A DNA stretch of 64,000 nucleotides, from sequence record OR352956.1; one strand, given 5' to 3'. The notes beneath the pieces are model-generated. The model saw only the letters and a program-made list of their open reading frames with translations, made no database searches and was not told the DNA's origin. Positions 5,717-62,174 of this stretch are shown piece by piece. Source of the DNA: Escherichia phage AV126. The translations under genes were made by a program, and so were the position numbers. Positions within the stretch are counted from its first letter, which is position 1. Each line of letters starts with the position of its first letter.

Positions 5717-5730
5717 TCGACAACAAAACA

Positions 5731-5759
5731 AGGGGCGCACCAAGCGCCCTTTCTTTTTG
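5731..5759 (+). terminator. rho-independent terminator (same hairpin as at 166-195)
   Basis: GGGGCGCACCAAGCGCCC hairpin plus TTTCTTTTT. Confidence 0.6.
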
Positions 5760-6299
5760 CCTGAACAATGTTGATAGCTTTCGCCTATGAAAAACCGACA
5801 CAGAACAAAACTGAATAAATCGCGGTATCGAGCTAATCAACCATCAAACGAATAACCATACATCCCAGGGCAACAGGCTGTTAGAGAGCTATTTAGAGCG
5901 GTTAAAATCGATCTACAACCAACAACAAACCATCAAAAACACCCTTTTACCTCCTTTCTAGTGCAATGATAACCATTATCATCTACCCATGATTATCTAT
6001 GCAATATAAGCGCATAATTATAATGTTGATAATAGTTCGCAACAACTAACCAACAAACAACATAAAACAATAAGCAAACTAATCATAATCAAAGGAATAA
6101 TAGCAAGATGATTGATAACGACAAACAATCAAACCATGATGAATACTAAGCAAGATAACGATAACACGACAAAACAACCAACTAACGAACAATAACAAAC
6201 GAAACCATTAAAAGATCAACTATTAGCAAAATAGTGTCTATTGCCATAATAGTGACTGAATGAAATCATTACAAAACGAATCATTCCAAGGATCATCAT

Positions 6300-6460
6300 T
6301 AGCACGCTACGCCGGACACGTAGCGAGCTAATAATAAGCCAACTACACCCCAACAATCATAACCATCGGTGACGGTTATTTCTTGTTACTGCGTAGCTTG
6401 CAATAATTGCAAGCGTAATGACGCTTACACTTATTGCGCTGGCTTATTATTAGCATTATA
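6300..6460. repeat. nested inverted-repeat cluster in non-coding region
   Basis: 15-bp inverted repeat GCTAATAATAAGCCA (6327-6341) / TGGCTTATTATTAGC (6440-6454) enclosing palindrome CTTGCAATAATTGCAAG and hairpin CGCTACG-CCGGACA-CGTAGCG. Confidence 0.6.
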
Positions 6461-7275
6461 TGTAATTACCAAGATCATAACATTAGCGCAATAACAATAA
6501 TCATTACAATAATTACATAAGGAAACAATTAGCATAGCAATAATTATGGGGGCAATGGGAGGATGATTATCATCATTCCGATACATTGCACACTATGCAC
6601 ATAATAAGATAAAAAGCAATAATCTTGGGGGCGAAATGTTACCGCCACAGGCGGGAATGTTGAGCATCTTCTCTTAAACGTAAATAAAATCAGAAAATTC
6701 TTGATTTATTTTAGTTTTTATGTTAATAAACGTTTAAATAATAATCATTCTCATATAAATAATAGTCTGCTTGTCATGAGCGGGATTAGTTGACATTGTT
6801 CCGTCATATGATGAAGTTGCCAAGCCATTGATAAATAAGTGTTTGTGTGATTTATAATCAAGTGGCCCACCTTGTCGCTACGTTGGCATGAGCCTTGCAT
6901 AAGTCATTGAATACGAATGATAATTATTCTCATTCGCATGATATTTGGGAATTGTCGCTGCGTGGACCTGACGGCCCGAAAATTCGCGTTAAGCACTTCT
7001 TACGTATGCGCCATGATTTTTGCCATATCATATTGATTCTATTAGATATTCTTGCCATGATTGCCATGAAACAGGGTGTCCCGAAATAATCTCTCCCCGT
7101 AGATATTTTGGGTTACTTTTTATACAAGAGTGGGGTGTCAAAAATAATCGGTATATATGGGATAATTGATAGGAATCCCCTATGATAATTCGATTGTAAT
7201 TCCCTAAGATTGATCGTATGATGTTGGTGATTGATGATTGCCATGAAAGATGGCTAACGATGAGAGGAGATTATC

Positions 7276-7644
7276 ATGCAAGAGAGTAAAAATATTCCGT
7301 TGAGCAGTGCAGCATTGATTCAATTCTACAAAGCATGGATGGCTGATCACTACAGCATGGATCGCACGGAGAATGGACTGTGTTTATGTATTCATCATTT
7401 TGTGCGATCTCATCTTATGAAAGATGTGGAGAATCCCCGATGGTATGCCGACATAATAGATAGCTTGTTGTTTGAGATGCGTGCTCAGTTCAAAGACGCT
7501 GGCATTGATACGTGCGCACCCTTCAACACTGGATATGCGGATTACTTGATTGAAGTGGAAGATAAAATGTGTCACCTGAATCCACTTCGCATTCAGTGGG
7601 TGAAAGATCGCATTGAAGATGCAAATAATGCTTGCATTGAATAA
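7276..7644 (+). CDS. hypothetical protein, paralog family A (copy 1 of 5)
   Basis: GAGAGGAGA SD; shares the GLC...YPF...WVKDR pattern with the ORFs at 10714, 14040, 17338 and 18643. Confidence 0.6.
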   Translation: MQESKNIPLSSAALIQFYKAWMADHYSMDRTENGLCLCIHHFVRSHLMKDVENPRWYADIIDSLLFEMRAQFKDAGIDTCAPFNTGYADYLIEVEDKMCHLNPLRIQWVKDRIEDANNACIE

Positions 7645-7714: not shown

Positions 7715-7945
7715 ATGCATAGCATGAAACGCATGAAAATTCGTATTGAGAATGATGGTGGTTATAAAGGATTGGCACATGCAAAATTTCCACTTGTGCT
7801 GGAAGCTACGGTGGAATACAGTGGGCTTGCTCATGTGCGATTCTCGAAGATGATGGAAGTGCAGGAATGGTTTTGGGACGAGATAGATGCACGAGAAGGA
7901 GAAGATTATGTTTTCTTTCCTCACGAATATGAAATTATCTATTAA
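7715..7945 (+). CDS. hypothetical protein, paralog family B (copy 1 of 2)
   Basis: GAGGAG SD; shares EWF...GEDYVFF motif with the ORF at 11424. Confidence 0.55.
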   Translation: MHSMKRMKIRIENDGGYKGLAHAKFPLVLEATVEYSGLAHVRFSKMMEVQEWFWDEIDAREGEDYVFFPHEYEIIY

Positions 7946-7957
7946 GGGTTGTGTGCA

Positions 7958-8197
7958 ATGATCACACCACAACAGAATGAAGCAGCAATGGATCTTCTTG
8001 ATAGTTTGTATTTCGATAATTGGTACTCTGAATGTGAATGGATGAATGTGCAAACTCTGAAAGAGAAGACAAAAGCGTTGATTACAGTAGATCAATTTCT
8101 TGCAGAGACGGAAAGAATGAATTATGATATGGCATCTCGCGCACGACGCGTTTCCATTTTCAATAAAATGTTAGCATTATGGGGAGGTAGAAAATGA
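7958..8197 (+). CDS. hypothetical protein
   Basis: ORF 7949..8197 (TTG) trimmed to ATG at 7958. Confidence 0.45.
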   Translation: MITPQQNEAAMDLLDSLYFDNWYSECEWMNVQTLKEKTKALITVDQFLAETERMNYDMASRARRVSIFNKMLALWGGRK

Positions 8198-8655
8198 GAC
8201 AACCATCTATACTGGAAGCGCATGTGCAGTGTGTTGTAGATTATGTCAAAGAACACTCAAGTTTATTAAATGTAACCTGTGCAGTGCAAAATGATGTAGG
8301 TATTGTCTGTGTGCAACATATCTTATCTGAAACTCGTTATGAAGTGTTTCGTGCCACGTTGTTTGGATGTGATCGGGTGCATGTAAACTTCCTGGACTCC
8401 AATTATCGTTATGCTTTAGAAAATATTGATGACTATCTTCCTTGCTCTCCGACAGGATATGTAATGGTAACAGCAAACGAAGTAACACCGAGCAACAGTG
8501 AACGGGAAGCTTTGTTACGGAAGAAAATACGCCAACTGCAAGTGTTGAATGAAATGCAAGAAGAGATTGAAAAAGAACTAAAAGAAGATTTTGGTATACT
8601 TCCAAAAGACGCTTTGAAATGGTATGATGAACTAGGAGGAGAAAGTTATGAATAA
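8194..8655 (+). CDS. hypothetical protein (153 aa)
   Basis: GGGGAGG SD; ATGA overlap with upstream gene. Confidence 0.55.
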   Translation: MRQPSILEAHVQCVVDYVKEHSSLLNVTCAVQNDVGIVCVQHILSETRYEVFRATLFGCDRVHVNFLDSNYRYALENIDDYLPCSPTGYVMVTANEVTPSNSEREALLRKKIRQLQVLNEMQEEIEKELKEDFGILPKDALKWYDELGGESYE

Positions 8656-8842
8656 AGGAACCACTGTATATTTAGTGACTAAGAACACCCCATGTTGGAA
8701 TCAGTGCACAACGACTCCATATAAAATCTGTGCAACACTGGAACTAGCACAACGTGCAGAAGCAGAAGTTGACGCTATGCATTACAGTTATGGGGAGATC
8801 ATTCCTTTCACTCTGGAACAAGAAGGAGCATACAATGTTTAA
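8648..8842 (+). CDS. hypothetical protein (64 aa)
   Basis: GGAGGAG SD; start overlaps upstream stop. Confidence 0.5.
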   Translation: MNKGTTVYLVTKNTPCWNQCTTTPYKICATLELAQRAEAEVDAMHYSYGEIIPFTLEQEGAYNV

Positions 8843-9293
8843 AGAAGGCCATGTCTACCGTTTCCAGGATGAGGATTATATGCGACTGTATTCTACCTTT
8901 GATAAAGGTATTGCGACTATCATTGGAGAGAATTTTTTCGAGGTGTTGAGCACTGATACGAATGGTAATATCTTGTCAATGGTTGTAATAGGTATGAGAG
9001 ATGGTATTATCACTGCTGGTGATGGGGATCGTTACATAATCAATTCTGCTCATATAGATTATTTTGTTGACGGTGGTGTTCGTGGTGGTCGTGGAAAACC
9101 CCAAGAAGAACCTGTTGATACAACAAAAGAAGAGTGGTATGTTGTAATGACTGATGACACATGTATTTCTGGATTTGAAAGTTATGAAGAAGCTTTGAAA
9201 GAAGCAGCAGAGCATAAAATGGCTAATCCTACAGAAGAGGTTGAAGTTTATAAACGTTTGGTTGTTGCTACCATCGGCGTATCTTTTGTTTAA
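8835..9293 (+). CDS. hypothetical protein
   Basis: ORF 8754..9293 trimmed to ATG at 8835 with AAGGAG SD. Confidence 0.5.
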   Translation: MFKEGHVYRFQDEDYMRLYSTFDKGIATIIGENFFEVLSTDTNGNILSMVVIGMRDGIITAGDGDRYIINSAHIDYFVDGGVRGGRGKPQEEPVDTTKEEWYVVMTDDTCISGFESYEEALKEAAEHKMANPTEEVEVYKRLVVATIGVSFV

Positions 9294-9305
9294 AAGGAGA
9301 ATGTT

Positions 9306-9743
9306 ATGTTTAAAGTTAATGCTGTTTACTGTTTCAAAAGTAAAGCTGCATGTGAAGCTTTCTCTATGATCTCTGATGAAAATTTCAAAATGGCAGCTTT
9401 GATTGAAGGGTCTTGTTTCCGCGTCGAAGATGTTAGTGAATCAGGGTCTGTTTGCTCATTGACTTTATTGGACAGCGGGGATATTATTGAAGCTGGACAG
9501 TATCCGTTCAGAAGTTGGGAGATATTGTTAGCTCGCGGAGAGCGTAACTTTTTTATGTGCGTGTCTGCGGGGGAAGTTGTGAAAGAAACTAAGGATGTTT
9601 CTGTTTACAATTCTGAATTTATAAGTTATAGTGAGTATCAACATCTGGAAGGCATTGTTGGTCACTTGTTATCTCTGATTGACATTGAATGTGACTTGCC
9701 TGAATCATTGAAAGAAGAGTTGAAAGCATTAGATCTGTTATAA
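9306..9743 (+). CDS. hypothetical protein (145 aa)
   Basis: AAGGAGA SD upstream. Confidence 0.55.
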   Translation: MFKVNAVYCFKSKAACEAFSMISDENFKMAALIEGSCFRVEDVSESGSVCSLTLLDSGDIIEAGQYPFRSWEILLARGERNFFMCVSAGEVVKETKDVSVYNSEFISYSEYQHLEGIVGHLLSLIDIECDLPESLKEELKALDLL

Positions 9744-9770
9744 TGTTTCGCACAACGAAAGGAGAATAAG

Positions 9771-10070
9771 ATGAATCTGACCGAACAGTTACGCCGTATT
9801 GCAAAAGAAGCTTCCTTCAACTTCCCTGTTGAAGAAGTGATCGAGACATGTTTTGCTGAAGCACGAGCGGGAAACTCTTCAAGAAATTTCACGCCATCTG
9901 ATTTTGGTCTGGATAACTCCCCTACCCACCCAGGGGAGATCTACAATCAGGTGAAGTGGATGGATGAAGCAGTAGCAATTCTTCGTGAGCGTGGGCTTAT
10001 TGTTTATAAAGAAATGGATCTGAACGGGGCATACGAGTGGATCACTATTGATTGGTCGGAGGTGAAATAA
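9771..10070 (+). CDS. hypothetical protein (99 aa)
   Basis: AAGGAGA SD upstream. Confidence 0.55.
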   Translation: MNLTEQLRRIAKEASFNFPVEEVIETCFAEARAGNSSRNFTPSDFGLDNSPTHPGEIYNQVKWMDEAVAILRERGLIVYKEMDLNGAYEWITIDWSEVK

Positions 10071-10279
10071 TGGTTACTATCACATTGACAGTTACACAAG
10101 AGCAAGCAGAAGAATTACGTGATGCACTGGCATATATGGGACGCGCTTATTATATGCCTCATAAATCTCAAGATGTTTTTGCTACAGCCGTTGAGAAAGC
10201 TTTAAACAAATACCGAGAAACTCATGCCGTTCCTAAAGTATCAGCAGAAGAGTTTGGCACTTGGCACGAAGTTCACTGA
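10070..10279 (+). CDS. hypothetical protein
   Basis: ORF 10052..10279 trimmed to ATG at 10070 (GGAGGTG SD, TAATG overlap). Confidence 0.5.
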   Translation: MVTITLTVTQEQAEELRDALAYMGRAYYMPHKSQDVFATAVEKALNKYRETHAVPKVSAEEFGTWHEVH

Positions 10280-10289
10280 GGAGGTTTCG

Positions 10290-10523
10290 ATGAAAGGTAA
10301 CAAGATGAAAGTTAGTCAAGTGCCGAGCGCATACACTTTGTGGCTTGCGCGAGCGTTACACCAGACGATCAAAAACCCTAAGAAGCCAATGAAGAGCGGG
10401 AAGAAGTTTATGTCTAAGGGCAAAACAACCTTTGGCTTCACTCGTATGTCTGTTAAGATGAAAAGACTGGGATACAAGCCAAACTACGCTCGTTACCCTT
10501 CCGAATACAACTGGTTTGACTAA
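10290..10523 (+). CDS. hypothetical basic protein
   Basis: ORF 10224..10523 trimmed to ATG at 10290 with GAGGAGG SD; Lys/Arg-rich. Confidence 0.5.
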   Translation: MKGNKMKVSQVPSAYTLWLARALHQTIKNPKKPMKSGKKFMSKGKTTFGFTRMSVKMKRLGYKPNYARYPSEYNWFD

Positions 10524-10536
10524 AAGGAGAAAGATT

Positions 10537-10713
10537 ATGGCTACTTTTCAACAATTGAAAGATGTTTCACGTTTAGTAAGAAAAATCCGAGAAGCAGACG
10601 CTGCTGTGCGGAATGCACTAACACCAGCAGAGCGTGAAGATCTTGAAGAGGAGGTGAAAACAGCCGAGAATGCTTTTGCTGCGTATCTTTCAACACTGTA
10701 CACAGGAGGTTAA
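10537..10713 (+). CDS. hypothetical protein
   Basis: ORF 10516..10713 trimmed to ATG at 10537 with AAGGAGA SD. Confidence 0.45.
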   Translation: MATFQQLKDVSRLVRKIREADAAVRNALTPAEREDLEEEVKTAENAFAAYLSTLYTGG

Positions 10714-11028
10714 ATGTCAGAAGAACTTAAAGAATTTTATCAGGCATATCATAACTGGCTGTTAGCTGGTGCTCCAGATAATAATCCTTTCTGGCATGAT
10801 AAAGGGTTATGTAGTTGCCTCTATCTTTGGTCTGGTGGTTATGATGACCTAAATTATGAAATGCAAATGCAATTCCGCGAAGCAGGTTTGTCTGAAGAAT
10901 ACCCGTTTGATGATGGGGATTGGTTTAAATATGATTTTGCACAAAGAAACGGGCTGCTACATTTAAATGCTGCCCGTATAAAATGGGTAAAAGATCATGC
11001 TACACAGGAGGATGTGCAATGCCTATAG
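10714..11028 (+). CDS. hypothetical protein, paralog family A (copy 2 of 5)
   Basis: AGGAGG SD; conserved GLC...YPF...WVKD pattern. Confidence 0.6.
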   Translation: MSEELKEFYQAYHNWLLAGAPDNNPFWHDKGLCSCLYLWSGGYDDLNYEMQMQFREAGLSEEYPFDDGDWFKYDFAQRNGLLHLNAARIKWVKDHATQEDVQCL

Positions 11029-11219
11029 TGTTTGTTTTCTTGGCAATTGTTATGGTTGTTCTTTTCGCCGCATGGCTTTGGGATTTTGACCCAGGAGCCG
11101 CGCAGCAAAGAGCTACAGACTTGAAAGAACAATGTATTGTGCTCAAACATGAACGAAATGCGGAGAAATTTCTTGACCTGGAGTGTGATCGCCTTGTAAG
11201 ATACAAGCAAGATAAATAA
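11019..11219 (+). CDS. hypothetical membrane protein
   Basis: ORF 10983..11219 trimmed to ATG at 11019 (AGGAGGA SD); hydrophobic N-terminal helix. Confidence 0.45.
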   Translation: MPIVFVFLAIVMVVLFAAWLWDFDPGAAQQRATDLKEQCIVLKHERNAEKFLDLECDRLVRYKQDK

Positions 11220-11233
11220 CTTTTAGGTGCAAA

Positions 11234-11422
11234 ATGGTAATTGAGATTAAACTTGAATATGCTGGGGCTGTTGCCTTGATCGCACAAATGCTTGGAGCAA
11301 AGATTGAAGAAGTGTATATCAACGCCTGGAGCGTAGAGATTGATGTTCCTATGGACAACATTGCTAATCGCTTGCTGGTGGCAGAGTGTGAACGCACCAA
11401 CATAATCTACAAAGGAGCATAA
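11234..11422 (+). CDS. hypothetical protein (62 aa)
   Basis: ORF in operon context. Confidence 0.45.
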   Translation: MVIEIKLEYAGAVALIAQMLGAKIEEVYINAWSVEIDVPMDNIANRLLVAECERTNIIYKGA

Positions 11423-11423
11423 T

Positions 11424-11645
11424 ATGAAAATTAGAGTTTGTGATGTATTGGGTTATGTTGGTTTTGAGAATGTTCAGATTCCTTTTGTTGTTGAAGCACA
11501 TCTTGTTAGTGAGGATATGACAACATTCTTTGTTACGATAGAAGAAATGTCCAAAGTTGAGGGATGGGAGTGGTTTGAAGAAGATGTTTGGGAAGGTTGT
11601 GATTACGTATTCTTCTCTGACGAAGTGAATGTTCTTGCGGAGTAG
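11424..11645 (+). CDS. hypothetical protein, paralog family B (copy 2 of 2)
   Basis: AAGGAG SD; EGWEWFEEDVWEGCDYVFF motif matches the ORF at 7715. Confidence 0.55.
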   Translation: MKIRVCDVLGYVGFENVQIPFVVEAHLVSEDMTTFFVTIEEMSKVEGWEWFEEDVWEGCDYVFFSDEVNVLAE

Positions 11646-11647
11646 GT

Positions 11648-11854
11648 ATGTCTTGTTTTACAAAAGCAGTGTCCATATGTAAGAAACAGTATGAAAGTGA
11701 TTACGGAATATTTAATATTCCAGTAGATCATACAGTGTATTGTTCATGTGGTGGCAGAATGAAGAAAACAGTGATTTATGCGGATAATGGAGATGAACTT
11801 GTTCCAGTTATGGTTTGCAAAGCTTGTCATTCTGTTAAAACATTAAAAGCGTAA
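11648..11854 (+). CDS. hypothetical zinc-ribbon-like protein (68 aa)
   Basis: Cys pairs CSCGG ... CKACH. Confidence 0.45.
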   Translation: MSCFTKAVSICKKQYESDYGIFNIPVDHTVYCSCGGRMKKTVIYADNGDELVPVMVCKACHSVKTLKA

Positions 11855-13695: not shown

Positions 13696-14040
13696 ATGAT
13701 TAAACTTTTATGTGCAGAGTCTTCTGTCGAGTTCCTTAAAGAGGGTAAGCAGTATCTAGCTTCCCAAGTTATAGATAATCCAGGTTTGTTTTATATTACA
13801 GACGAAGAAGGGGATACCCTGTGTATCTCTTTGATTATGGATTGTGGTCGGTTTCATGTAATTGAGGATGACACTATTCGTCTCTTTGAGGTTTCCTACA
13901 CAAAAGACAATGGTCCTGTCCGTAAATATCAAATTCCCGCAAAATCCGCCTTTAACGCATGTGTACGATTAGGTCAAATCTACGGGGACGATAAAGATTG
14001 TCGTGAAGACGTGTTTATCAATGTGATCGAGGTAAAATAA
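13696..14040 (+). CDS. hypothetical protein (114 aa)
   Basis: AAGGAGAG SD; TTGACA promoter-like motif upstream at 13638. Confidence 0.55.
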   Translation: MIKLLCAESSVEFLKEGKQYLASQVIDNPGLFYITDEEGDTLCISLIMDCGRFHVIEDDTIRLFEVSYTKDNGPVRKYQIPAKSAFNACVRLGQIYGDDKDCREDVFINVIEVK

Positions 14041-14366
14041 TGAAAACAAGTAAAGATTTGATGGAGTTTTATAAAATTTATCTAGCATGGATTGATGTTG
14101 GTGCTCCTGATGGTAAACCTTTTCGGCGGGATTGTGGTTTGTGTGCCAACTTGTTCGATTATGTGCACAGAGGTAATTACAACCCCATTATAACAACCTT
14201 ATCAGATGAAATGCACGCACAGTTTTACCATAAAAGGTTGAATCAAGGACTCCCTTTCAATGAGAACTACGATGCATATGTCTTAGAGTCAGATGCAGAT
14301 GCCTGTCACCTGAACGTGGACAGAATTAATTGGGTAAGAGATCGTATTGCAGAGGAGGATGAATAA
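14040..14366 (+). CDS. hypothetical protein, paralog family A (copy 3 of 5)
   Basis: conserved GLC...LPF...H.N.DRI.WV.DR pattern. Confidence 0.6.
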   Translation: MKTSKDLMEFYKIYLAWIDVGAPDGKPFRRDCGLCANLFDYVHRGNYNPIITTLSDEMHAQFYHKRLNQGLPFNENYDAYVLESDADACHLNVDRINWVRDRIAEEDE

Positions 14367-16228: not shown

Positions 16229-16257
16229 GAGAATACAGCAATGGTTTAGGAGTGGTT

Positions 16258-16929
16258 ATGAAAAAGTTTGTTGTTTACAGTCGTCTTTCTAAACAGAAAA
16301 AAGGTGAGGCACAATATGGTATGGAGAGCCAAGAGAATGATATCCGTTACTTCTTAGACTCTGTGCCTGATGCGGAAGTTATTGGTCAATTTTCTGAATA
16401 CTATTCGGGTAAGGGTGATTGGAAGCAACGTAAGGAACTGGTTAAAGCGGTTGAAATGTGTAAAGCTACCGGAGCAACTTTATTGGTAGCTAAAGTTGAC
16501 CGCTTGGGTCGTAACAACGCCTCCGTAGCAACTCTTCTAGAAATGATCGATGTTAAGATAGCCATCATGCCAGACGCAGATAAAATGGTTATACAGCTTC
16601 TGTCTGTTCTGGCTGAACAAGAAGTTAGAGGTATTGCTGATCGTATTAAAAAGGGTCTTGCTGTAGCAAAAAGCAAAGGTGTTTTATTAGGCAGTGCTAA
16701 TCCTAAAACTGCCGCTGCACGTAGAAAAGGAAAAATGGAATACAACTCTGTTAAAGCAGACGCTTTTGCAGAGACATTCCGTGAACGCTTGGAGATCCTT
16801 AGAGATTTAAATACACCTTACAAAACTATTGCTGAAAAATTCAATAGTAAGAAAATAGCAACAGCACGTGGTGGTAAATGGGATGCTAAAACTGTTTCTC
16901 GTTTGTGTGCCAGACTGAACATTAAATAG
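16258..16929 (+). CDS. serine recombinase (resolvase/invertase family)
   Basis: N-terminal catalytic YSRLS serine motif, LLVAKVDRLGRN resolvase signature, C-terminal HTH-like tail; AGGAGTGG SD. Confidence 0.7.
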   Translation: MKKFVVYSRLSKQKKGEAQYGMESQENDIRYFLDSVPDAEVIGQFSEYYSGKGDWKQRKELVKAVEMCKATGATLLVAKVDRLGRNNASVATLLEMIDVKIAIMPDADKMVIQLLSVLAEQEVRGIADRIKKGLAVAKSKGVLLGSANPKTAAARRKGKMEYNSVKADAFAETFRERLEILRDLNTPYKTIAEKFNSKKIATARGGKWDAKTVSRLCARLNIK

Positions 16930-16937
16930 GAGAGGAT

Positions 16938-17360
16938 ATGAAACAAGAAAATGAATCTGTAGATCACTTAATCATGCTGTCAGCCCTTTTTGCCGGATGG
17001 AACGTATTTTTTGAAAATTTGTTCAATTCTGCTACAGATGGTTCCGATTTTATGCGCCAGTTTAAACGACGAACTGTTGAGGACTATGCTTTCTATTCAG
17101 GTCGGATTGAAAAAGGTTACGAAGATACAAATACAACACTCACCATTAAAGTTTTAGATGTGATGTTTAGTGTTATAGATGCTATCGACGAAAGTCTTCC
17201 GATCCTAGACAATTGTAATACGAAAGCCTATGTTTACAAAATAGCTCGTGCTTATGTGTCTGCAAACAGTTGTCTTCTTTCCGCCCAGATTGCCGTGAAC
17301 AATCTTGCCAACTTGTTCGATGAAGGAGAAACTTTTTATGACAATCGATTTGAAGTGTAA
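16938..17360 (+). CDS. hypothetical protein (140 aa)
   Basis: AGGAGAGGA SD. Confidence 0.5.
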   Translation: MKQENESVDHLIMLSALFAGWNVFFENLFNSATDGSDFMRQFKRRTVEDYAFYSGRIEKGYEDTNTTLTIKVLDVMFSVIDAIDESLPILDNCNTKAYVYKIARAYVSANSCLLSAQIAVNNLANLFDEGETFYDNRFEV

Positions 17361-17703
17361 GAGGATTCTTTTAGATTTCTATAATAATTGGTTAGAACAC
17401 CTCCGTCTCTTTCCAAGAGAAAGTGGTTACGCTGATGTTGGCTTATGCCGAGGTCTACGTATGTATATAAGTGATGAATTTCGGGCCGAGCATTCTTTAG
17501 CATATTCTGTTTATGGTATGCAATTAGCCAGTTTTGAAAACGCTGGCTTAGATACAACTTTCCCATTTAACACAGCAAAATCTTTTGAGCAAGAGTGTAA
17601 GGAAAAACGTTGCATGTTTAATGAAAAACGTGTACAGTGGGTTAAGGATCGAGTTAAACAACTGGAACAAGAGTTGGATTTCTTCTATGATGAGGCAGAA
17701 TAA
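17338..17703 (+). CDS. hypothetical protein, paralog family A (copy 4 of 5)
   Basis: ORF 17305..17703 trimmed to ATG at 17338 (GAAGGAGA SD); conserved GLC...FPF...WVKDR pattern. Confidence 0.55.
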   Translation: MTIDLKCKRILLDFYNNWLEHLRLFPRESGYADVGLCRGLRMYISDEFRAEHSLAYSVYGMQLASFENAGLDTTFPFNTAKSFEQECKEKRCMFNEKRVQWVKDRVKQLEQELDFFYDEAE

Positions 17704-17979: not shown

Positions 17980-18591
17980 ATGATTCAATGCACTCATATC
18001 CAAATTACTTGGAGAGATGAACTTTACCATTTGGGACAATTTACTGTAGGGGAAACATACCCTATCATTAAACATAATCCTAACATCGCAAACTTTGACA
18101 GGATGGTTCTTGTTGAGGACGATCTAGGTCAAACTTATTCTTTAGATCTAAAATATCCGTTTTCTTACGGCTACGATTGGATCGTTACTTTTGAAGACGT
18201 GGAGGAAAATAAAACAATGAACGAAAAAAATTCTTGGTATTATCGTTGTGAACTGCCACCAGTAGGTGAAAAGGTTATCTTTGTCCCTGATTTGGAAAGA
18301 TATTCTTGGGACAGTTCTTATTCTGTTCCTAAAGAAGGCACCGAAGTTGAAGTTATTGCACATCGCACAACTTCGCATGGTAACGATGTAGCAGTTGTTT
18401 TCTGGGATGATGAAGGCGCTGCTTGTGCAGGTGGCTTTGTTGCAGGTAATTTTGAACCCCTGCCAGATCCTTTGAAGGAGGCAATTTTAGGCGTAGCTTC
18501 TTTTGGACTCTCTTACACATCTGCACAAGAGATCGTAGAAGGTATTTTAAACGGTACCGTTCCAAACGAAATTTTTAAACAGATTAAATAA
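17980..18591 (+). CDS. hypothetical protein (203 aa)
   Basis: GGGGGTGA SD. Confidence 0.55.
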   Translation: MIQCTHIQITWRDELYHLGQFTVGETYPIIKHNPNIANFDRMVLVEDDLGQTYSLDLKYPFSYGYDWIVTFEDVEENKTMNEKNSWYYRCELPPVGEKVIFVPDLERYSWDSSYSVPKEGTEVEVIAHRTTSHGNDVAVVFWDDEGAACAGGFVAGNFEPLPDPLKEAILGVASFGLSYTSAQEIVEGILNGTVPNEIFKQIK

Positions 18592-18597
18592 TAGTTG

Positions 18598-18625
18598 CAC
18601 CCCGTTCTGCGGGGTGTTATTGTAT
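18598..18625 (+). terminator. putative intrinsic terminator (CACCCCG-TTCT-GCGGGGTG hairpin)
   Basis: GC hairpin followed by T-rich tract. Confidence 0.45.
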
Positions 18626-18642
18626 ATGTAAAGGAGGCGCTA

Positions 18643-18981
18643 ATGTATTACACTGAAGACTACATATTGTATAACTTTTTTAAAGGTTGGTTGAAATGGG
18701 CGGAACAAGCTCCTGTCGGAGATTGTGTTTTTCCTTGGGATTCTCGTCAAGGCTTGTGTCGTTGTTTGGAAGATTGGCTTATAACCACAAACTACAATTC
18801 AGAAACTAAGAAATCTACATCAAACAGATTAAAAATGTTATTTGAAGAAGATGGTTTAGATCCAATTTATCCTTTCGGTGCTGAAAGCTTCCACAATGGT
18901 CTTTTTCTTGGCACTCAACATTATGACAAAGATCGCGTAGATTGGGTAAAAGAAAAGGTAGCACAGTATGAATGGGGCTAA
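18643..18981 (+). CDS. hypothetical protein, paralog family A (copy 5 of 5)
   Basis: ORF 18595..18981 trimmed to ATG at 18643 (AAGGAGG SD); conserved GLC...YPF...WVKEK pattern. Confidence 0.55.
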   Translation: MYYTEDYILYNFFKGWLKWAEQAPVGDCVFPWDSRQGLCRCLEDWLITTNYNSETKKSTSNRLKMLFEEDGLDPIYPFGAESFHNGLFLGTQHYDKDRVDWVKEKVAQYEWG

Positions 18982-20231: not shown

Positions 20232-20261
20232 TTGACAAACTCACAAAACTTGTGTTACATT
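20232..20261 (+). promoter_or_regulatory. sigma70-like promoter (TTGACA - 17 nt - TTACAT)
   Basis: consensus -35 upstream of gene 20299 after a ~360 bp intergenic gap. Confidence 0.5.
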
Positions 20262-20298: not shown

Positions 20299-20514
20299 AT
20301 GAGTTCCAATTTTCTATACAAAGCAAAAGATTCACGAGATGGAGAGAACCATTGGTGGTTGATCACAGAAGATGGTGTTATCATCCTACCGTGGGACGGA
20401 GAGACGAAAGTTCAAATATTAGAGAAAGTAAAAGGTGTTAGTTTTAATGTTAGTCATGATATAACAACTTTCAAAGCTTTTGCTATGAATCCTAATCTTG
20501 TTGCTGAATGGTAA
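20299..20514 (+). CDS. hypothetical protein, tandem paralog 1
   Basis: GGAGGAAGA SD; C-terminus NLVAEW matches the next gene. Confidence 0.55.
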   Translation: MSSNFLYKAKDSRDGENHWWLITEDGVIILPWDGETKVQILEKVKGVSFNVSHDITTFKAFAMNPNLVAEW

Positions 20515-21811: not shown

Positions 21812-22420
21812 ATGGAAGAGAAGATTTGGGATGGTAAAGATCCTTTAGAAGTTGGACACGTAGCGCGTGTCAAAAAATCTACTACAGGTCCTGGTTTTTC
21901 TGGTTTGTATCATATACCAGAAGAAGGTCAGCACGTTACAATTTTGGCTCGTGACAAACAAAACGGAGCAACGCCTGTGTGGATTGTTCGTTGGTATGAC
22001 AAAGATCTTAACATTTGCTTGTCACCTATTATGGCTCATTTGCTGGAAGCCCCTTGCTCTGAAGAAGCTCTAATTTTTGTTTCGGCTTTTCAGAAAGCCA
22101 CAGGTTTAACATTAGATGCAAAAGATGTGCAAAAAGCATTTGACATTATTCAGGAAGACAACGATACTACATCTAACGACGAACTGGTTGAAGTTACAAT
22201 CTTATCTTCAGCAGATATCCGAGAGATTGATAATTGTGATTTTCCAATCACATTTAAAATGTCGCAGAAAGACATGCAGTCATCTGGAAGTTGTTTTGGT
22301 ATACCTCGTTGGTTTTTTGATTCTATCAAAAATTCTACTACAGAGGGATCAGACTATGATCAAGATGACGTGCTTTGGTTCTTAAAAAACCGAGAGATTG
22401 TTCTCTCACCACTTAAATAA
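21812..22420 (+). CDS. hypothetical protein (202 aa)
   Basis: GGAGG SD. Confidence 0.55.
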   Translation: MEEKIWDGKDPLEVGHVARVKKSTTGPGFSGLYHIPEEGQHVTILARDKQNGATPVWIVRWYDKDLNICLSPIMAHLLEAPCSEEALIFVSAFQKATGLTLDAKDVQKAFDIIQEDNDTTSNDELVEVTILSSADIREIDNCDFPITFKMSQKDMQSSGSCFGIPRWFFDSIKNSTTEGSDYDQDDVLWFLKNREIVLSPLK

Positions 22421-22769: not shown

Positions 22770-23051
22770 ATGGAACTCGTTCAAGAATTGTATAATGCTT
22801 TAGGAGCAAAAGGAAAGGATTGGCCCGAACATGCGCTTATCGCTATAAGAGACTCCGATGGTGAGATTAAGTTCTCTAGTGTAAGTAAAGAACACATCGT
22901 AGAAAATGAGTTTGGTATTTACATGCGTGGAACTTATTGCTTATTCAACACCAGAATGGTAGAAGCCCCTGTTATTGAGTGTGGAACAAAAGATTGCCCC
23001 ACAATCGTAACAAAATCTGAATATGAGAAGTTTTTCTACGCTAAAGCTTGA
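22770..23051 (+). CDS. hypothetical protein (93 aa)
   Basis: AAGGAGG SD. Confidence 0.55.
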   Translation: MELVQELYNALGAKGKDWPEHALIAIRDSDGEIKFSSVSKEHIVENEFGIYMRGTYCLFNTRMVEAPVIECGTKDCPTIVTKSEYEKFFYAKA

Positions 23052-23094
23052 CACAGAAACAATACTATAGGATAGTGATTCTATCGTAGCAATA

Positions 23095-23118
23095 GAACCC
23101 GCTTCGGCGGGTTTTTTC
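23095..23118 (+). terminator. rho-independent terminator (AACCCGCTTCGGCGGGTT plus T-run)
   Basis: GC hairpin with TTCG loop followed by TTTTTT. Confidence 0.65.
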
Positions 23119-23142
23119 ATATCTGTAGCAATAGGAGGTCGT

Positions 23143-23373
23143 GTGTTAAATAAAATCGAAGAAGGTTGTATGGCATTTTTGGTAGATAACCCGTTTCCGT
23201 TTATGGTTAAGATCCATGTAGGAGAGTATTTAGGTAATGACGAATGGGATTGTAGTATCAATAGCGAAATGCACTACTACCAACCAACAATACTTAAGAC
23301 GGATCAAATGGCGCGTATCACAGTAGAGGATGAATTGATCATTGAGTTATACGAGAGAGCACTGCACAAGTAA
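23143..23373 (+). CDS. hypothetical protein (76 aa)
   Basis: AGGAGG SD; possible GTG start. Confidence 0.4.
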   Translation: MLNKIEEGCMAFLVDNPFPFMVKIHVGEYLGNDEWDCSINSEMHYYQPTILKTDQMARITVEDELIIELYERALHK

Positions 23374-23413
23374 GCTAGAACCCACCTAAATCGAACAGAG
23401 ACGCTCTAAAATA

Positions 23414-23448
23414 GAAAAGGCACCCACTTGGGTGCCTTTGTTTTATTC
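23414..23448. terminator. bidirectional terminator at the convergence of plus and minus gene blocks
   Basis: AAAGGCACCCACTTGGGTGCCTTT hairpin with T-tracts on both strands. Confidence 0.6.
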
Positions 23449-23715
23449 TTCGTTAGATTGCGTTTCAGATGCGTTAAATTCGGTTTCAGTACAACTTGCT
23501 AGGTAACTTATATTTTGCATCACTACAACTACAGGTGTTTGAAGTTTATCTTCTAGCCCCGCAGCCACTTGAGCCAAGGCATTATCAATATTTGATTTCC
23601 TAACACCTGTTCCATGTCCTGTTGCCAAGTAAAGATTACCTTCCCCTTTTTGTGTAGCATTAGCAAAGTAGTAAACGTAATGTGCAAGGTAGTAATCACG
23701 GATTTCTTCAGTCAT
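23443..23715 (-). CDS. hypothetical protein (90 aa)
   Basis: ORF at end of minus-strand block. Confidence 0.45.
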   Translation of the reverse strand: MTEEIRDYYLAHYVYYFANATQKGEGNLYLATGHGTGVRKSNIDNALAQVAAGLEDKLQTPVVVVMQNISYLASCTETEFNASETQSNEE

Positions 23716-23758
23716 TTTATTCTCCTGATAAGAAAGGGGCCGAAGCCCCTTGAGTGGT

Positions 23759-24559
23759 TTATTTGTTTAAATGGTCTTCAACCATTTTGATAAAGCCTTC
23801 ATCACTGAAGACTGTTCCTGCTTTCTCTCGGTAGACAAGCACTCCACGTTCTTCGTAGAGAGTTTGTTCTACAAAATTCAAACCTGGGTTAACTACTACC
23901 ATCTTAACCCCAATATTCAGGGCAGGGAAGAGTTCCCAGTTGAAGTTGATTACTTGGTTAGAGCAGCCTACAACGATAACCATATCTTGTGATGTTAGTT
24001 GATCCAGTTTGTGATACATGTCTGTGTAGAGTGGTGCATTCTCACCAAAAAACACCACATTAGGCTTCACATATTTGTAATCGTCTACATCAATAGCTGC
24101 GTAACCCACATCTTTGATAATTTTGTTATCAACAACAACTTCTGGCAAGAAGCCATGAACGTGCAATATTTCTTCTCTATCGATTCCAGCGCGTTCTAAT
24201 AGATCGTCAACGTTAGTAGTAATGTTAATAATCCTTTCTGCACCGTATTTTTCGAACCATTCTCCAATCTGAAGATGTGCTGGATTCGGGTCAACTTTCT
24301 CTAATTCCACGCGACGTTTATTGTAGAAGTCGTGAGTTTTACGGTAGAGGTTATATCCTTCCACATCTAAGCCACCCATAGCATCAGGAATACCCTGTTC
24401 TTGCTGATAACCGTCACGGAAGTTGAAAATGTCACAGACTTCTGTTAAATCGTATTCATCCCATAATGCCTTTCCAGAATCTGTTTCTGTGCGAAATGTT
24501 TGGATTCCGCTGTCAGCACTTAGTCCCGCACCACTAATAAAATATACACGTCTTGGCAT
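23759..24559 (-). CDS. Sir2-like NAD-binding protein (no zinc-ribbon cysteines)
   Basis: GAGLSADSGI Rossmann motif, sirtuin-like NITTNVDDLLERAG, HG and VVFFGE motifs; no CxxC pairs. Confidence 0.55.
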   Translation of the reverse strand: MPRRVYFISGAGLSADSGIQTFRTETDSGKALWDEYDLTEVCDIFNFRDGYQQEQGIPDAMGGLDVEGYNLYRKTHDFYNKRRVELEKVDPNPAHLQIGEWFEKYGAERIINITTNVDDLLERAGIDREEILHVHGFLPEVVVDNKIIKDVGYAAIDVDDYKYVKPNVVFFGENAPLYTDMYHKLDQLTSQDMVIVVGCSNQVINFNWELFPALNIGVKMVVVNPGLNFVEQTLYEERGVLVYREKAGTVFSDEGFIKMVEDHLNK

Positions 24560-60248: not shown

Positions 60249-60323
60249 GGCCCTGTAGCTCAATGGGAGAGCTGTCGGCTCATAACCGATAGGTAGCTGG
60301 ATCGAAACCAGCCAGGGCCACCA
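60249..60323 (+). tRNA. tRNA with CAT anticodon (Met or lysidine-Ile2 type)
   Basis: cloverleaf folded by eye: acceptor GGCCCTG/CAGGGCC, anticodon loop CTCATAA, T-arm GCTGG-ATCGAAA-CCAGC, CCA encoded. Confidence 0.7.
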
Positions 60324-60325
60324 AC

Positions 60326-60400
60326 GTCTTTATGGTGTAATGGATAGCACAGGAGTCTTCTAAACTCTTAGTCAAGGTTCGATTCCTTGTAAAGACACCA
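60326..60400 (+). tRNA. tRNA-Arg (TCT)
   Basis: acceptor GTCTTTA/TAAAGAC, anticodon loop CTTCTAA, T-loop TTCGATT, CCA encoded. Confidence 0.7.
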
Positions 60401-60645
60401 GAACATTTTAACATGAATTAGCTCAAGTGATTTGAACCCACTACTGATCATGGTGGCAGAGAATGAGGCAAGTATGTCAGACATTATAAACAAAGGCCAC
60501 GGTTATATTAGAAGACATAAATGCTCGAAGAGCACCGTTCGTGGAGAACGGGGGTTGGTGGAGTCACCATTCATGGTAAAATGTTTTAAAAAACTATTGA
60601 CAACAAACATTATTTTATGTTAGATTATAAGTATGGAAGGGCAAA

Positions 60646-60727
60646 TCGACGTGGCGACGAAAACGGTCTTGAAAACCGCCGAGCTTGAAAGAGCCTTGGG
60701 AGTTCGACTCTCCCTCCTTCAGCCAGA
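60646..60727 (+). tRNA. tRNA-like element, possibly degenerate tRNA-Ser (TGA)
   Basis: canonical T-arm GGGAG-TTCGACT-CTCCC and candidate anticodon loop CTTGAAA, but imperfect acceptor and D arms; promoter-like TTGACA at 60597. Confidence 0.3.
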
Positions 60728-60729
60728 TT

Positions 60730-60815
60730 AGGTAGATTGGTGAAATGGTAGCCACGACAGTTTGCTAAACTGTAGTCGGAAACGGCGTGTAGGTTCGAGT
60801 CCTACATCTACCGCC
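60730..60815 (+). tRNA. tRNA-Ser (GCT)
   Basis: acceptor GGTAGAT/ATCTACC, anticodon loop TTGCTAA, long variable arm, G discriminator, CCA encoded. Confidence 0.7.
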
Positions 60816-60946
60816 AAGTTCTTTTTAATGTAGCTTACTTTAGCAGAGTAAATCTTCGGCAAGTGGCGGTAACCACTTTACCGATAACTCATAGTTAGTG
60901 GTGCGAACACTGGCTATTTTAAAAAGAATTTAAATATTAGTATTTA

Positions 60947-61034
60947 GGTGAGTTAATTCCGTAGGGGTAGCGGGGCAGACTGTAAATCTGTTATCATTGC
61001 GATTCGGGTGGTTCGACTCCATCACTCACCACCA
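60947..61034 (+). tRNA. tRNA-Tyr (GTA)
   Basis: acceptor GGTGAGT/ACTCACC, anticodon loop CTGTAAA, long variable arm, T-loop TTCGACT. Confidence 0.7.
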
Positions 61035-61040
61035 AATTAA

Positions 61041-61126
61041 GATGAGTTGGCTGAATGGTTTAAGCGGCGGACTGTTAATCCGTGTTCGAAAGAACAATAT
61101 AGGTTCGAATCCTATACTCATCGCCA
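61041..61126 (+). tRNA. type-II (long variable arm) tRNA with GTT (Asn) anticodon
   Basis: perfect acceptor GATGAGT/ACTCATC, Ser-like D arm, anticodon arm GCGGA-CTGTTAA-TCCGT, variable hairpin GTTC-GAAA-GAAC, T-arm ATAGG-TTCGAAT-CCTAT, G discriminator. Confidence 0.55.
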
Positions 61127-61133
61127 GAATTAT

Positions 61134-61211
61134 GGACTTGTAGAGTTAAGGTAAACCCCCCAGTCGCCAATAGGCTTCTGGAATTGCAGGTATCGAATCC
61201 TGCCGAGTCCC
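61134..61211 (+). ncRNA. tRNA-like element, unresolved
   Basis: 7-bp acceptor-like pairing GGACTTG/CGAGTCC and T-arm-like GCAGG...CCTGC but no canonical anticodon arm found by eye. Confidence 0.25.
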
Positions 61212-61217
61212 AGCATT

Positions 61218-61292
61218 GCTCCTATAGTATAATGGCTATTACAACGGTTTTGTAATCCGTGGATCTCTGTTCGATTCAGTGTGGGAGCACCA
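61218..61292 (+). tRNA. tRNA-Thr (TGT)
   Basis: acceptor GCTCCTA/TGGGAGC, anticodon loop TTTGTAA (one mismatch in anticodon stem), CCA encoded. Confidence 0.55.
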
Positions 61293-61565
61293 ACACAACA
61301 TTAAGAGCACTGTGATTGATCGTCGTATCCTGTGCACAAGGTCTGCTCGAAAGACAGTGTTCTTAGTATTGTGTTGATCACAAAAAGAGTCACCCGAAAC
61401 TTGACCGGAGTAGGGTTGGATGGGGAAAAATGAGAAGCGGCTCTCCCATTGACAGCAACGAAGAATAATATTTGACTTTGGTTTTGTATTATTTTAAGTT
61501 AGCTTACCGAACGTAGGGCTAGTCACCCAACGGGATACTCGTCACTGTCCCAATCAATAAAAGTC

Positions 61566-61595
61566 TTGACAACAAATAGTAAAATGTAGTATAGT
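61566..61595 (+). promoter_or_regulatory. sigma70-like promoter (TTGACA - 18 nt - TATAGT) driving the downstream tRNA group
   Basis: consensus -35 and near-consensus -10 about 11 nt upstream of tRNA-Gly. Confidence 0.6.
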
Positions 61596-61606
61596 AAATA
61601 TATAGG

Positions 61607-61680
61607 GCGTTCTTGGTGTAGCGGTAGCATTCCGTCCTTCCAAGTCGGCGGCACGAGTTCGATCCTCGTAGAACGCTCCA
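61607..61680 (+). tRNA. tRNA-Gly (TCC)
   Basis: acceptor GCGTTCT/AGAACGC, anticodon loop CTTCCAA, U discriminator, CCA encoded. Confidence 0.65.
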
Positions 61681-61778
61681 AATTATTTAATAAAGGGTTG
61701 CCAGAAAACTTTCTCTTTTACTCATGGTTTTCTCCTTCTCTCACACTTCTTCTGGTTGCCCTTCATTAAATGATTTAT

Positions 61779-61854
61779 TGGTTTGTAGTGTAGTCCGGTA
61801 GCACACGACACTTTGACTGTCGTAGGTTTGGTTCAAATCCAGACAGACCAGCCA
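61779..61854 (+). tRNA. tRNA-Gln (TTG)
   Basis: acceptor TGGTTTG/CAGACCA with U1-A72, anticodon stem CGACA/TGTCG, loop CTTTGAC, G discriminator. Confidence 0.7.
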
Positions 61855-61859
61855 TATAA

Positions 61860-61936
61860 CGGAATTTAGCTCAGTTTGGTAGAGCATACGCTTTGGGAGC
61901 GTAGGGTCGCAGGTTCGAATCCTGCAATTCCGACCA
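61860..61936 (+). tRNA. tRNA-Pro (TGG)
   Basis: acceptor CGGAATT/AATTCCG, D arm GCTC-AGTTTGGTA-GAGC, anticodon loop TTTGGGA, T-loop TTCGAAT. Confidence 0.75.
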
Positions 61937-61942
61937 ATTTAA

Positions 61943-62016
61943 TGTTTCGTAGTTCAATGGTAGAACCCACGACTGATAATCGTGAGACACAAGTTCGATT
62001 CTTGTCGAAACAACCA
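61943..62016 (+). tRNA. tRNA-Ile (GAT)
   Basis: acceptor TGTTTCG/CGAAACA, anticodon stem CACGA/TCGTG, loop CTGATAA, T-loop TTCGATT. Confidence 0.75.
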
Positions 62017-62018
62017 GT

Positions 62019-62091
62019 TTCCCGTTAGACTTACAGGATAAGAGTTCCACAGCTTATTGTGATGCTGGTTCGAATCCAGCACGGGATACCC
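62019..62091 (+). ncRNA. tRNA-like element, anticodon unresolved
   Basis: canonical T-arm GCTGG-TTCGAAT-CCAGC and acceptor-like TTCCCGT/ACGGGAT, but D and anticodon arms could not be folded by eye. Confidence 0.3.
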
Positions 62092-62094
62092 AAT

Positions 62095-62174
62095 AGCGGG
62101 ATAGAGGAGTCTGGTCGTCCTCGCCAGTTTCATATGCTGGAGATCATCGGTTCGAATCCGATTCCCGCCTCCAA
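62095..62174 (+). tRNA. tRNA-Met (CAT), 1:72 mismatch
   Basis: acceptor AGCGGGA/TCCCGCC with unpaired A1/C72, anticodon stem CCAGT/GCTGG, loop TTCATAT, T-loop TTCGAAT. Confidence 0.6.

Follow-up and report, generated by a model that had tools for sequence, protein, structure and literature searches.

In the 64,000 nucleotides (nt) of Escherichia phage AV126 analysed here (sequence record OR352956.1; hereafter the window), a long run of short genes includes two pairs of small proteins that resemble each other: B1 and B2, encoded by the open reading frames (ORFs) at 7715 and 11424, and C1 and C2, encoded by adjacent ORFs at 20299 and 20528. The phage is a Phapecoctavirus, a phAPEC8-like E. coli myovirus of the subfamily Stephanstirmvirinae. 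A preliminary description of this DNA placed each B gene beside a member of a further family, A, and proposed that a multi-gene module had been duplicated. The locus raises the question of whether these resemblances reflect common descent and, if so, whether the genes multiplied singly or as a module. Our analysis indicates that the two pairs are very probably genuine and ancient paralogs of two uncharacterised early-gene families, and not the outcome of a module duplication.

Two families of small paralogous proteins

B1 and B2 align end to end with 37% identity (BLASTP, E 2e-13), which confirms the kinship suspected for this pair. In an all-against-all BLASTP comparison of the 351 window ORFs they are the only significant pair outside family A (E 1e-10), and phmmer on the + strand ORFs again returned B1/B2 as the sole significant pair besides the five family-A copies. 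Both proteins match the profile hidden Markov model (HMM) of the same PHROGs family, phrog_15322, over almost its whole length (B1, E 2.2e-41, positions 1–72 of 73; B2, E 5.7e-44, positions 1–73 of 73). Some details of the preliminary description needed correction: MKIR is the start of B2, as claimed, but the B1 ORF begins with MHSMKRMKIR, and the literal motif E-W-F-x-[DE]-x4-E-G fits neither protein, the spacing from EWF to EG being seven residues in B1 and five in B2. The block that truly aligns is W-x-W-x3-D-x2-E-G-x-D-Y-V-F-F. A Shine–Dalgarno sequence, GAGGAG, lies 6 nt before the B1 ATG at 7715, and B2 likewise has a good Shine–Dalgarno site. An exhaustive profile search of 1.8 billion representatives gave 48 clusters for family B.

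The kinship of C1 and C2, described as neighbours with near-identical C-termini, was borne out as well, but only by profiles. Pairwise, the two proteins share 24% identity (E 2e-4, as a single comparison), and the pair was missed by both all-against-all BLASTP and phmmer of the window ORFs. When profiles of their orthologues (from phiWec190, alia, Klebsiella phage phiYH65 and Enterobacter phage Entb_48) were compared by hhalign, 69 of 72 columns were matched with 98.4% probability and E 5e-15. A database search with the merged C alignment gave 74 clusters of 54–131 amino acids (aa), nearly all of them 63–77 aa. In an alignment of 42 C sequences six columns do not vary (Y5, A7, D9, L68, E71 and W72), and C1 and C2 have each of them; most members, these two included, stop exactly at ...LIAEW, and a few extend by 1–5 residues. 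Because the invariant columns and the LIAEW end run across the family alignment, the shared termini of C1 and C2 are a family signature rather than a coincidence. Both also show the family hallmark of an N-terminal LYKAxD, a central G-V and a terminal P-x-L-I/V-A-E-W. PHROGs splits the pair between phrog_16110 and phrog_24460, whereas the profile comparison indicates a single superfamily.

Compared with phiWec orthologs, the ratio of nonsynonymous to synonymous substitution rates (dN/dS) is 0.16–0.31 for B1, B2, C1 and C2 (0.20 for B1 against its phiWec186 ortholog), values that are rough since dS is near saturation (1.15–1.5), and the proportion of nonsynonymous differences (pN) lies far below that of synonymous ones (pS). 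All four genes are intact, have ribosome-binding sites ahead of them and are under purifying selection. Two AlphaFold2 models, with predicted local distance difference test (pLDDT) scores of 94.5 and 95.3, add to the coding support for the B and C genes. The weak pairwise similarity of C1 and C2, and its absence from the all-against-all searches, could be taken to mean that the resemblances are chance motifs in AT-rich short ORFs that are perhaps not genes. This explanation is refuted by the full-length alignments, the common PHROGs families, the profile–profile match, the homologous clusters in public data for both families, the high-confidence structure models and the excess of pS over pN. 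Coordinates of these and the other features are collected in Table 1.

Table 1. Location of the family A, B and C genes and associated features (window positions, except where a locus from another phage is named).
Feature	Coordinates	Strand	Remarks
B1	7715..7945	+	76 aa, acidic, isoelectric point (pI) 5.25; family B (phrog_15322); B domain from MKIR (7733)
B2	11424..11645	+	73 aa, very acidic, pI 4.05, net charge -14; family B; modelled five-stranded small beta-barrel
C1	20299..20514	+	71 aa; phrog_16110, E 4.5e-41; ends NLVAEW; AGGAGG Shine–Dalgarno; dN/dS 0.24 (rough)
C2	20528..20746	+	72 aa; phrog_24460 and phrog_16110 (E 5e-4, full-length secondary match); ends TLIAEW; 13 nt downstream of C1
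A1	7276..7644	+	family A (phrog_2510), just upstream of B1
A2	10714..11028	+	family A, 395 nt upstream of B2; closest paralog A3, not A1
A3	14040..14366	+	family A, no B gene downstream
A4	17305..17703	+	family A, no B gene downstream
A5	18595..18981	+	family A, no B gene downstream
Intervening ORF 1 between A2 and B2	11019..11219	+	66 aa, N-terminal hydrophobic (transmembrane) helix; unrelated to A, B, C; absent in phiWec186
Intervening ORF 2 (y) between A2 and B2	11234..11422	+	62 aa; 82% identity in phiWec186; unrelated to ORF X
Third, divergent B-like domain (tentative)	22190..22393	+	C-terminal ~70 residues (about 127–194) of the 202-aa ORF 21812–22420 (phrog_15762)
Sigma-70-like promoter (predicted)	20232..20261	+	TTGACA-18-TACATT, extended -10 TG; 10/12 consensus matches
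Strong bidirectional terminator	5730–5752		upstream of early block
B–C neighbour loci	L011 6001–6449; L015 5001–5449; L017 1433–1875		link B and C in an unrelated phage type

Family A and the proposed module duplication

The duplication of an A–B module was suggested by the statement that each B gene lies directly downstream of a family-A copy. This holds for B1, which follows the end of A1 at 7644 after a gap of 70 nt, but not for B2: A2 ends at 11028, and two ORFs, both conserved and annotated in relatives, stand between it and B2. A word-7 blastn self-comparison of 7.0–22.5 kb, carried out in place of the proposed dot-plot, showed no significant nucleotide similarity (best E 0.058, A2 against A3) and no module-level repeats. 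In G1, Schickermooser and phiWec186 a 69-aa ORF, X, separates A1 from B1; it is unrelated to ORF y, which precedes B2. As relatives carry this unrelated spacer, the direct contact of A1 and B1 in the window is a derived state. The genes flanking the two B sites include no other paralogs by phmmer of the + strand ORFs. A1 and A2 share 28.6% identity, compared to 38% for A2/A3 and 36% for A1/A3, and in a neighbour-joining (NJ) tree A1 clusters with A0 of relatives, with one copy from alia (Justusliebigvirus) and with metagenomic A genes that have a B on either side, while A2 groups with A3. B1 and B2 in turn belong to different clades. With no DNA similarity, B2 standing apart from A2, unrelated spacers and flanks, and incongruent A and B trees, the duplication of an A–B cassette is unsupported. 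Two further candidates were tried and rejected, namely a hidden B copy in ORF X and a divergent A in the ORF that precedes B in alia.

An ancestral A–B (or A–x–B) cassette, duplicated as a unit to give A1–B1 and A2–...–B2, would account for the A copy upstream of each B in the window, for the same A...B order at both sites in the divergent phiWec186 (where a single ORF separates A2 and B2) and for the proximity of A and B in other Stephanstirmvirinae. Apart from the absent DNA similarity and the unrelated spacers, such an origin is contradicted by A1 and A2 not being each other's closest paralogs, by the closer kin that B1 and B2 each have in other phages, by the three additional A copies that have no B, and by the alia B1 ortholog, which is not preceded by an A. 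Chance also counts against it: by our own estimate, with 5 A and 2 B among about 60 genes, both B genes would be found within three genes of an A in ~6% of cases. We therefore consider this scenario largely refuted and highly improbable.

A weaker point survives: throughout the subfamily, B genes are found next to A genes of the A1 type. The order is A–B in Phapecoctavirus and B–A–B in Klebsiella-infecting Stephanstirmvirinae; in Klebsiella phage phi1_175008 of this subfamily, as in two metagenomic phages of ~150 kb, the B–A–B genes are joined by 4-nt stop/start overlaps. The A1 gene of the window has a history of its own. In relatives, two or three A copies in tandem (A0, A1) occupy the place of the single window copy (locus L004, 14186–14931; locus L012, 614–1316), and the first 30 residues of the window protein are nearer to A0 (18/30 against 13/29 identical), while the rest is nearer to A1 (25/26 at the C-terminus). 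From these alignments, the window A1 looks like a collapse of tandem A copies by unequal recombination.

Age of the duplications and variation in copy number

In the NJ tree of family B, B1 and B2 belong to separate clades, and each of them is closer to proteins of other phages than to its partner. B2 has 45% identity to the upstream B of phi1_175008 compared to 31% to the downstream one, and B1 has 36–43% identity to the downstream-type B (phi1_175008, KP13-26) compared to 31% to the upstream B. As B2 is nearest to the upstream and B1 to the downstream copy, the B1/B2 split probably predates the separation of Phapecoctavirus from the Klebsiella-infecting Stephanstirmvirinae. The Justusliebigvirus alia has one B (51% identity to B1 and 37% to B2) and one C. 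In the NJ tree of family C, C1 groups with the single Justusliebigvirus copy, and C2 with homologues from 40–50-kb phages (Jedunavirus and metagenomic), to which it has 42–46% identity against ~22% to C1. The C tree suggests two possible origins of C2: an old tandem duplication, after which Justusliebigvirus lost its copy, or the acquisition of a gene that inserted next to C1.

The old clades and the lack of DNA similarity between the copies show that the pairs do not stem from a recent A–B segmental duplication. They would descend from old duplications of single genes, with both copies retained, or in the case of C2 possibly from an acquisition, and later insertion, deletion and recombination would have acted on them in a plastic region. 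The C tree also lends itself to a broader role for horizontal transfer, in which C2 came from a Jedunavirus-like phage of ~45 kb and inserted beside C1, and B2 came from another large phage. The nesting of C2 among homologues from 40–50-kb contigs and Klebsiella Jedunavirus fits this, as do the restriction of Justusliebigvirus to the C1 type and the B1 type and the 58% identity of B2 to the N-terminal domain of a two-domain metagenomic protein. However, tandem duplication is the simplest explanation for C2 sitting in exact tandem with C1, 13 nt behind it, and when proteins are this short a faster-evolving copy gives the same tree shape. Nor does B2 have to come from outside, since both B types are already present in the B–A–B cluster of Klebsiella Stephanstirmvirinae. 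We regard transfer of the second copies as rather unlikely, and old duplication within the lineage remains our preferred origin.

Comparison across related phages, which the preliminary description had proposed, confirmed that copy number varies. By tblastn, genomes contain one, two or three B copies, and most Phapecoctavirus genomes have two. Three are present in ZCKP1 and SF1-1, with a tandem B1a–B1b, and a single copy is found in some isolates and in all Justusliebigvirus among the matches listed. A copies number two in alia, five in the window and G1, six in ZCKP1 and SF1-1, and at least seven in the 14-kb phiWec186 locus, where three tandem A copies precede X–B1; the ranges are thus 1–3 for B and 2–7 for A. 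The recurrent local expansion noticed in this block is likewise real, with five A, two B together with a probable third domain, two C and a tandem pair at 8832/9306. Such plasticity is common in blocks of this kind. The members of the last pair, 8832–9293 and 9306–9743 (+), both start with MFK... and match phrog_3710 and phrog_5804 over their N-terminal ~95 residues. In vB_Ec-G1 the orthologue of 9306–9743 and the preceding gene of 786 nt are labelled 'goF mRNA metabolism modulator', for which we found nothing in support. In a metagenomic protein of 141 aa (P0024), the N-terminal ~54 residues of a B1 orthologue are joined to a C-terminal part from phrog_3710, the family of window ORF 8832–9293; such a natural chimera implies a deletion of ~1 kb in some relative.

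Structure and domain organization of families B and C

Family B is confidently modelled as a compact, acidic beta-barrel domain, probably of SH3-like type. The B2 model is an all-beta, five-stranded barrel of ~70 residues, of which ~48–50 superpose on SH3-like domains at 2.2–3.3 Å; the small barrels compared were SH3, KOW, the retroviral integrase C-terminal domain, PsaE and OapB. A Foldseek search of BFVD returned only uncharacterised phage proteins (ZCKP1, RB49, Sf20, Merlin, VpV262), with TM-scores of 0.7–0.8. About half of the B clusters are longer proteins of 110–250 aa, in which an N-terminal barrel is followed by a linker and a conserved helical domain of ~55 aa (tail consensus RKxxLLxLVxxYGxAI...EEEKRLLKEIxKMIEEGV; phrog_26590 / phrog_25740), and some longer relatives have two barrels. 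PHROGs does not record this link between B and the two-domain proteins; phrog_13367 is also a relative of phrog_15322. B1 and B2 end right after the barrel, and the KMIEEGV tail is not encoded in the window, as judged by a tail HMM run against all window ORFs of at least 20 aa (best E 0.38). A tail split off into the ORF after B1 (7949–8197, 'YSECEW') or after B2 (11648–11854, 'QYESDYG') was rejected by the same HMM, which matches no window ORF.

ORF 21812–22420 probably ends in a third, divergent B-like domain, a tentative assignment by sequence comparison. Its orthologue in alia matches the B HMM at E 6e-4, the window copy by itself at E 0.24, and hhalign of the window and alia C-terminal regions against the B-domain alignment gave 94.2% probability and E 1.1e-7. 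In the alia orthologue the B-like C-terminal part reads LEVILLNDGMFSGLASVDFPITL. ORFs 17980–18591 and 21812–22420 (+), both of ~200 aa, share 28% identity between residues 114–175 of the former and 33–93 of the latter (E 8e-4, single comparison). The composition of ORF 21812 suggests domain shuffling, in which a common N-terminal module would have been combined with the B-like C-terminal domain.

For family C, the models indicate an alpha/beta fold of beta3-alpha2-beta type without a close solved match; AP2 and integrase arm-binding domains are among its fold-search neighbours. The predicted sigma-70-like promoter (Table 1) lies within a 360-nt gap ahead of C1, and C1–C2 probably start a transcription unit, to judge by this arrangement. 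The 68-aa ORF after C2, 20740–20946 (+), has two CxxCxGxG-type motifs (CPYCGGAGY and CNPCKTTGY), like a DnaJ-type zinc finger; its relatives are labelled 'DNA ligase' (phrog_13972), which is implausible at such a size.

The block lies at the left end of the genome

Over the 14.5 kb around the four genes, the window has 96–98% DNA identity across more than 90% of the length to dozens of deposited Phapecoctavirus genomes, among them vB_Ec-G1, ESCO5, Schickermooser and phAPEC8. From 7.2 to ~23 kb all real genes are on the + strand and small (40–225 aa), and nearly all are annotated as 'hypothetical protein'. In several deposited genomes coordinate 1 falls 85–340 nt before window position 7000 (about 6660–6920), and A1 (7276) is the first or second gene. 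Ahead of A1, the strong terminator is followed by ~1.5 kb without credible ORFs (the 5730–7275 stretch), possibly a terminal-repeat boundary or an early promoter region. Since genomes start nearby, the genes are co-oriented, and the terminator and the ORF-poor stretch lie upstream, we read the block as the left end, and presumably, by this position, as the early region of the phage. The ORF-poor stretch also holds a 24-bp tandem repeat (7161–7210) and several promoter-like sites. GC skew turns from positive to negative at about 23000–24000, beyond the listed ORFs, which reach to ~22.4 kb; the coding strand may switch there, where the early block would end. Among the small early ORFs midway along the block is a serine recombinase of 225 aa (16252–16929, +), annotated as 'DNA invertase' in G1 and SF1-1. 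Far outside it, at 60249–62173 (+), the window contains a cluster of ten tRNA genes (Met x2, Arg, Ser, Asn, Thr, Gly, Gln, Pro, Ile), as expected for Stephanstirmvirinae.

Possible roles of the B and C proteins

Pfam and NCBIfam scans of A, B, C and the two-domain relatives gave nothing above noise. A, B, C and ORF 21812 matched no PADLOC defence profile (E up to 0.1), and PDB sequence searches, with single sequences (E up to 10) as well as family profiles, were empty. In PHROGs the families of A, B and C are all listed as 'unknown function'. The earlier remark that no annotated function explains these duplications is borne out by these results. Our search of the literature on Phapecoctavirus and Stephanstirmvirinae, covering paralogs, early genes, RNA sequencing and anti-defence, returned no work that deals with these genes.

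The three families are acidic, with median pI values of 4.4 in B, 4.6 in C and 5.0 in A, which argues against direct nucleic-acid binding. The SH3/KOW/Tudor/integrase-CTD-like barrel of B, and the AP2 and integrase arm-binding domains near C in fold space, could instead point to nucleic-acid-binding regulators of phage transcription or RNA. The net charge of -14 on B2 and the low median pI of both families are atypical for DNA or RNA binders, and we find such a role distinctly unlikely. The small, acidic, independently folding domains, the left-end position, presumed co-transcription with dozens of similar ORFs, modularity, variable copy number and purifying selection together fit the profile of early effectors. 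B and C proteins would be made first after infection and, as small effectors that bind proteins, would serve host takeover or counter-defence; paralogs might be kept as each recognises a different target or target variant, and A1-type A proteins may act together with B. We infer this functional class, early host-takeover or counter-defence protein binders, at slightly less than even confidence. Ancient paralog pairs that serve as early protein-binding effectors are the best explanation of the data overall, and a reasonably probable one.

Gene neighbourhoods offer some leads on partners. In three phage contigs of ~44 kb, a divergent C-family gene (MKYALYEAVD...QLIAEW) comes directly after a B gene and overlaps it by 4 nt. 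A viral-contig locus search with the B alignment gave a single locus, too few for neighbourhood statistics, and the A–B and B–C contexts are to be read as leads rather than statistics because they come from few, mutually related lineages. It is conceivable, although unlikely, that a conserved early operon encodes A1-type A proteins together with B barrels, whether or not these bear the KMIEEGV tail, and that the products assemble into a single takeover or counter-defence complex, with C as an interchangeable partner. If true, phages would possess a modular effector system that is widespread and as yet uncharacterised.

Several points weigh against our reading of the B and C genes as ancient paralogs with early effector roles. 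The clade assignments are soft, as the NJ trees were built on ~70 aligned residues, and the third B-like domain was obtained with a two-sequence profile; the rough dN/dS values belong here too. We found no transcriptome in the literature, early expression being taken from position only. The database searches gave no annotated homologue in support of any function, and both fold searches gave nothing specific. Finally, the A–B neighbourhood may be mere inherited synteny within one subfamily and not a sign of joint function.

Comparison with known systems

The B2 ortholog in Shigella phage SF1-1 (PQ571307) bears the label 'protein ea8.5'. Homologues of lambda Ea8.5, among them solved prophage proteins in the PDB, are described as having a homeodomain/zinc-finger hybrid fold. 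The B model, in contrast, is an all-beta barrel that lacks a Cys/His metal site, cysteine is absent from B1, and B matches no PDB chain (single sequence or profile) and no Pfam family. The two proteins are alike only as small phage proteins of unknown role, and the label on the B2 ortholog looks like an annotation artefact. The results thus allow some annotation clean-up, since 'ea8.5' is an incorrect name for B2 and a single superfamily holds both C1 and C2, and they define two uncharacterised small-protein domains with confident models. Public databases already contain the genes and families, listed as hypothetical proteins, and the findings are of modest practical use. The A–B and B–C neighbourhoods can be tested in phages developed for therapy against E. 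coli and Klebsiella; if the proteins are true effectors, copy-number variation could help explain host-range differences among near-identical Phapecoctavirus isolates.

Multigene families of small early takeover or accessory genes are known from the hyperplastic regions of T4, the pre-early region of T5 and the host-takeover module of SPO1. The window proteins differ from these in having no assigned target or phenotype, and they show no sequence relationship to characterised T4, T5 or SPO1 early proteins in the libraries searched. The likeness is one of organization. As in those regions, the block consists of dozens of co-oriented ORFs of 40–200 aa at a genome end, with several paralog families, copy numbers that vary between close relatives, fusions and deletions. 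Paralog families are commonplace in phage early regions, and what we describe here is the expected texture of the early region of a large phage.

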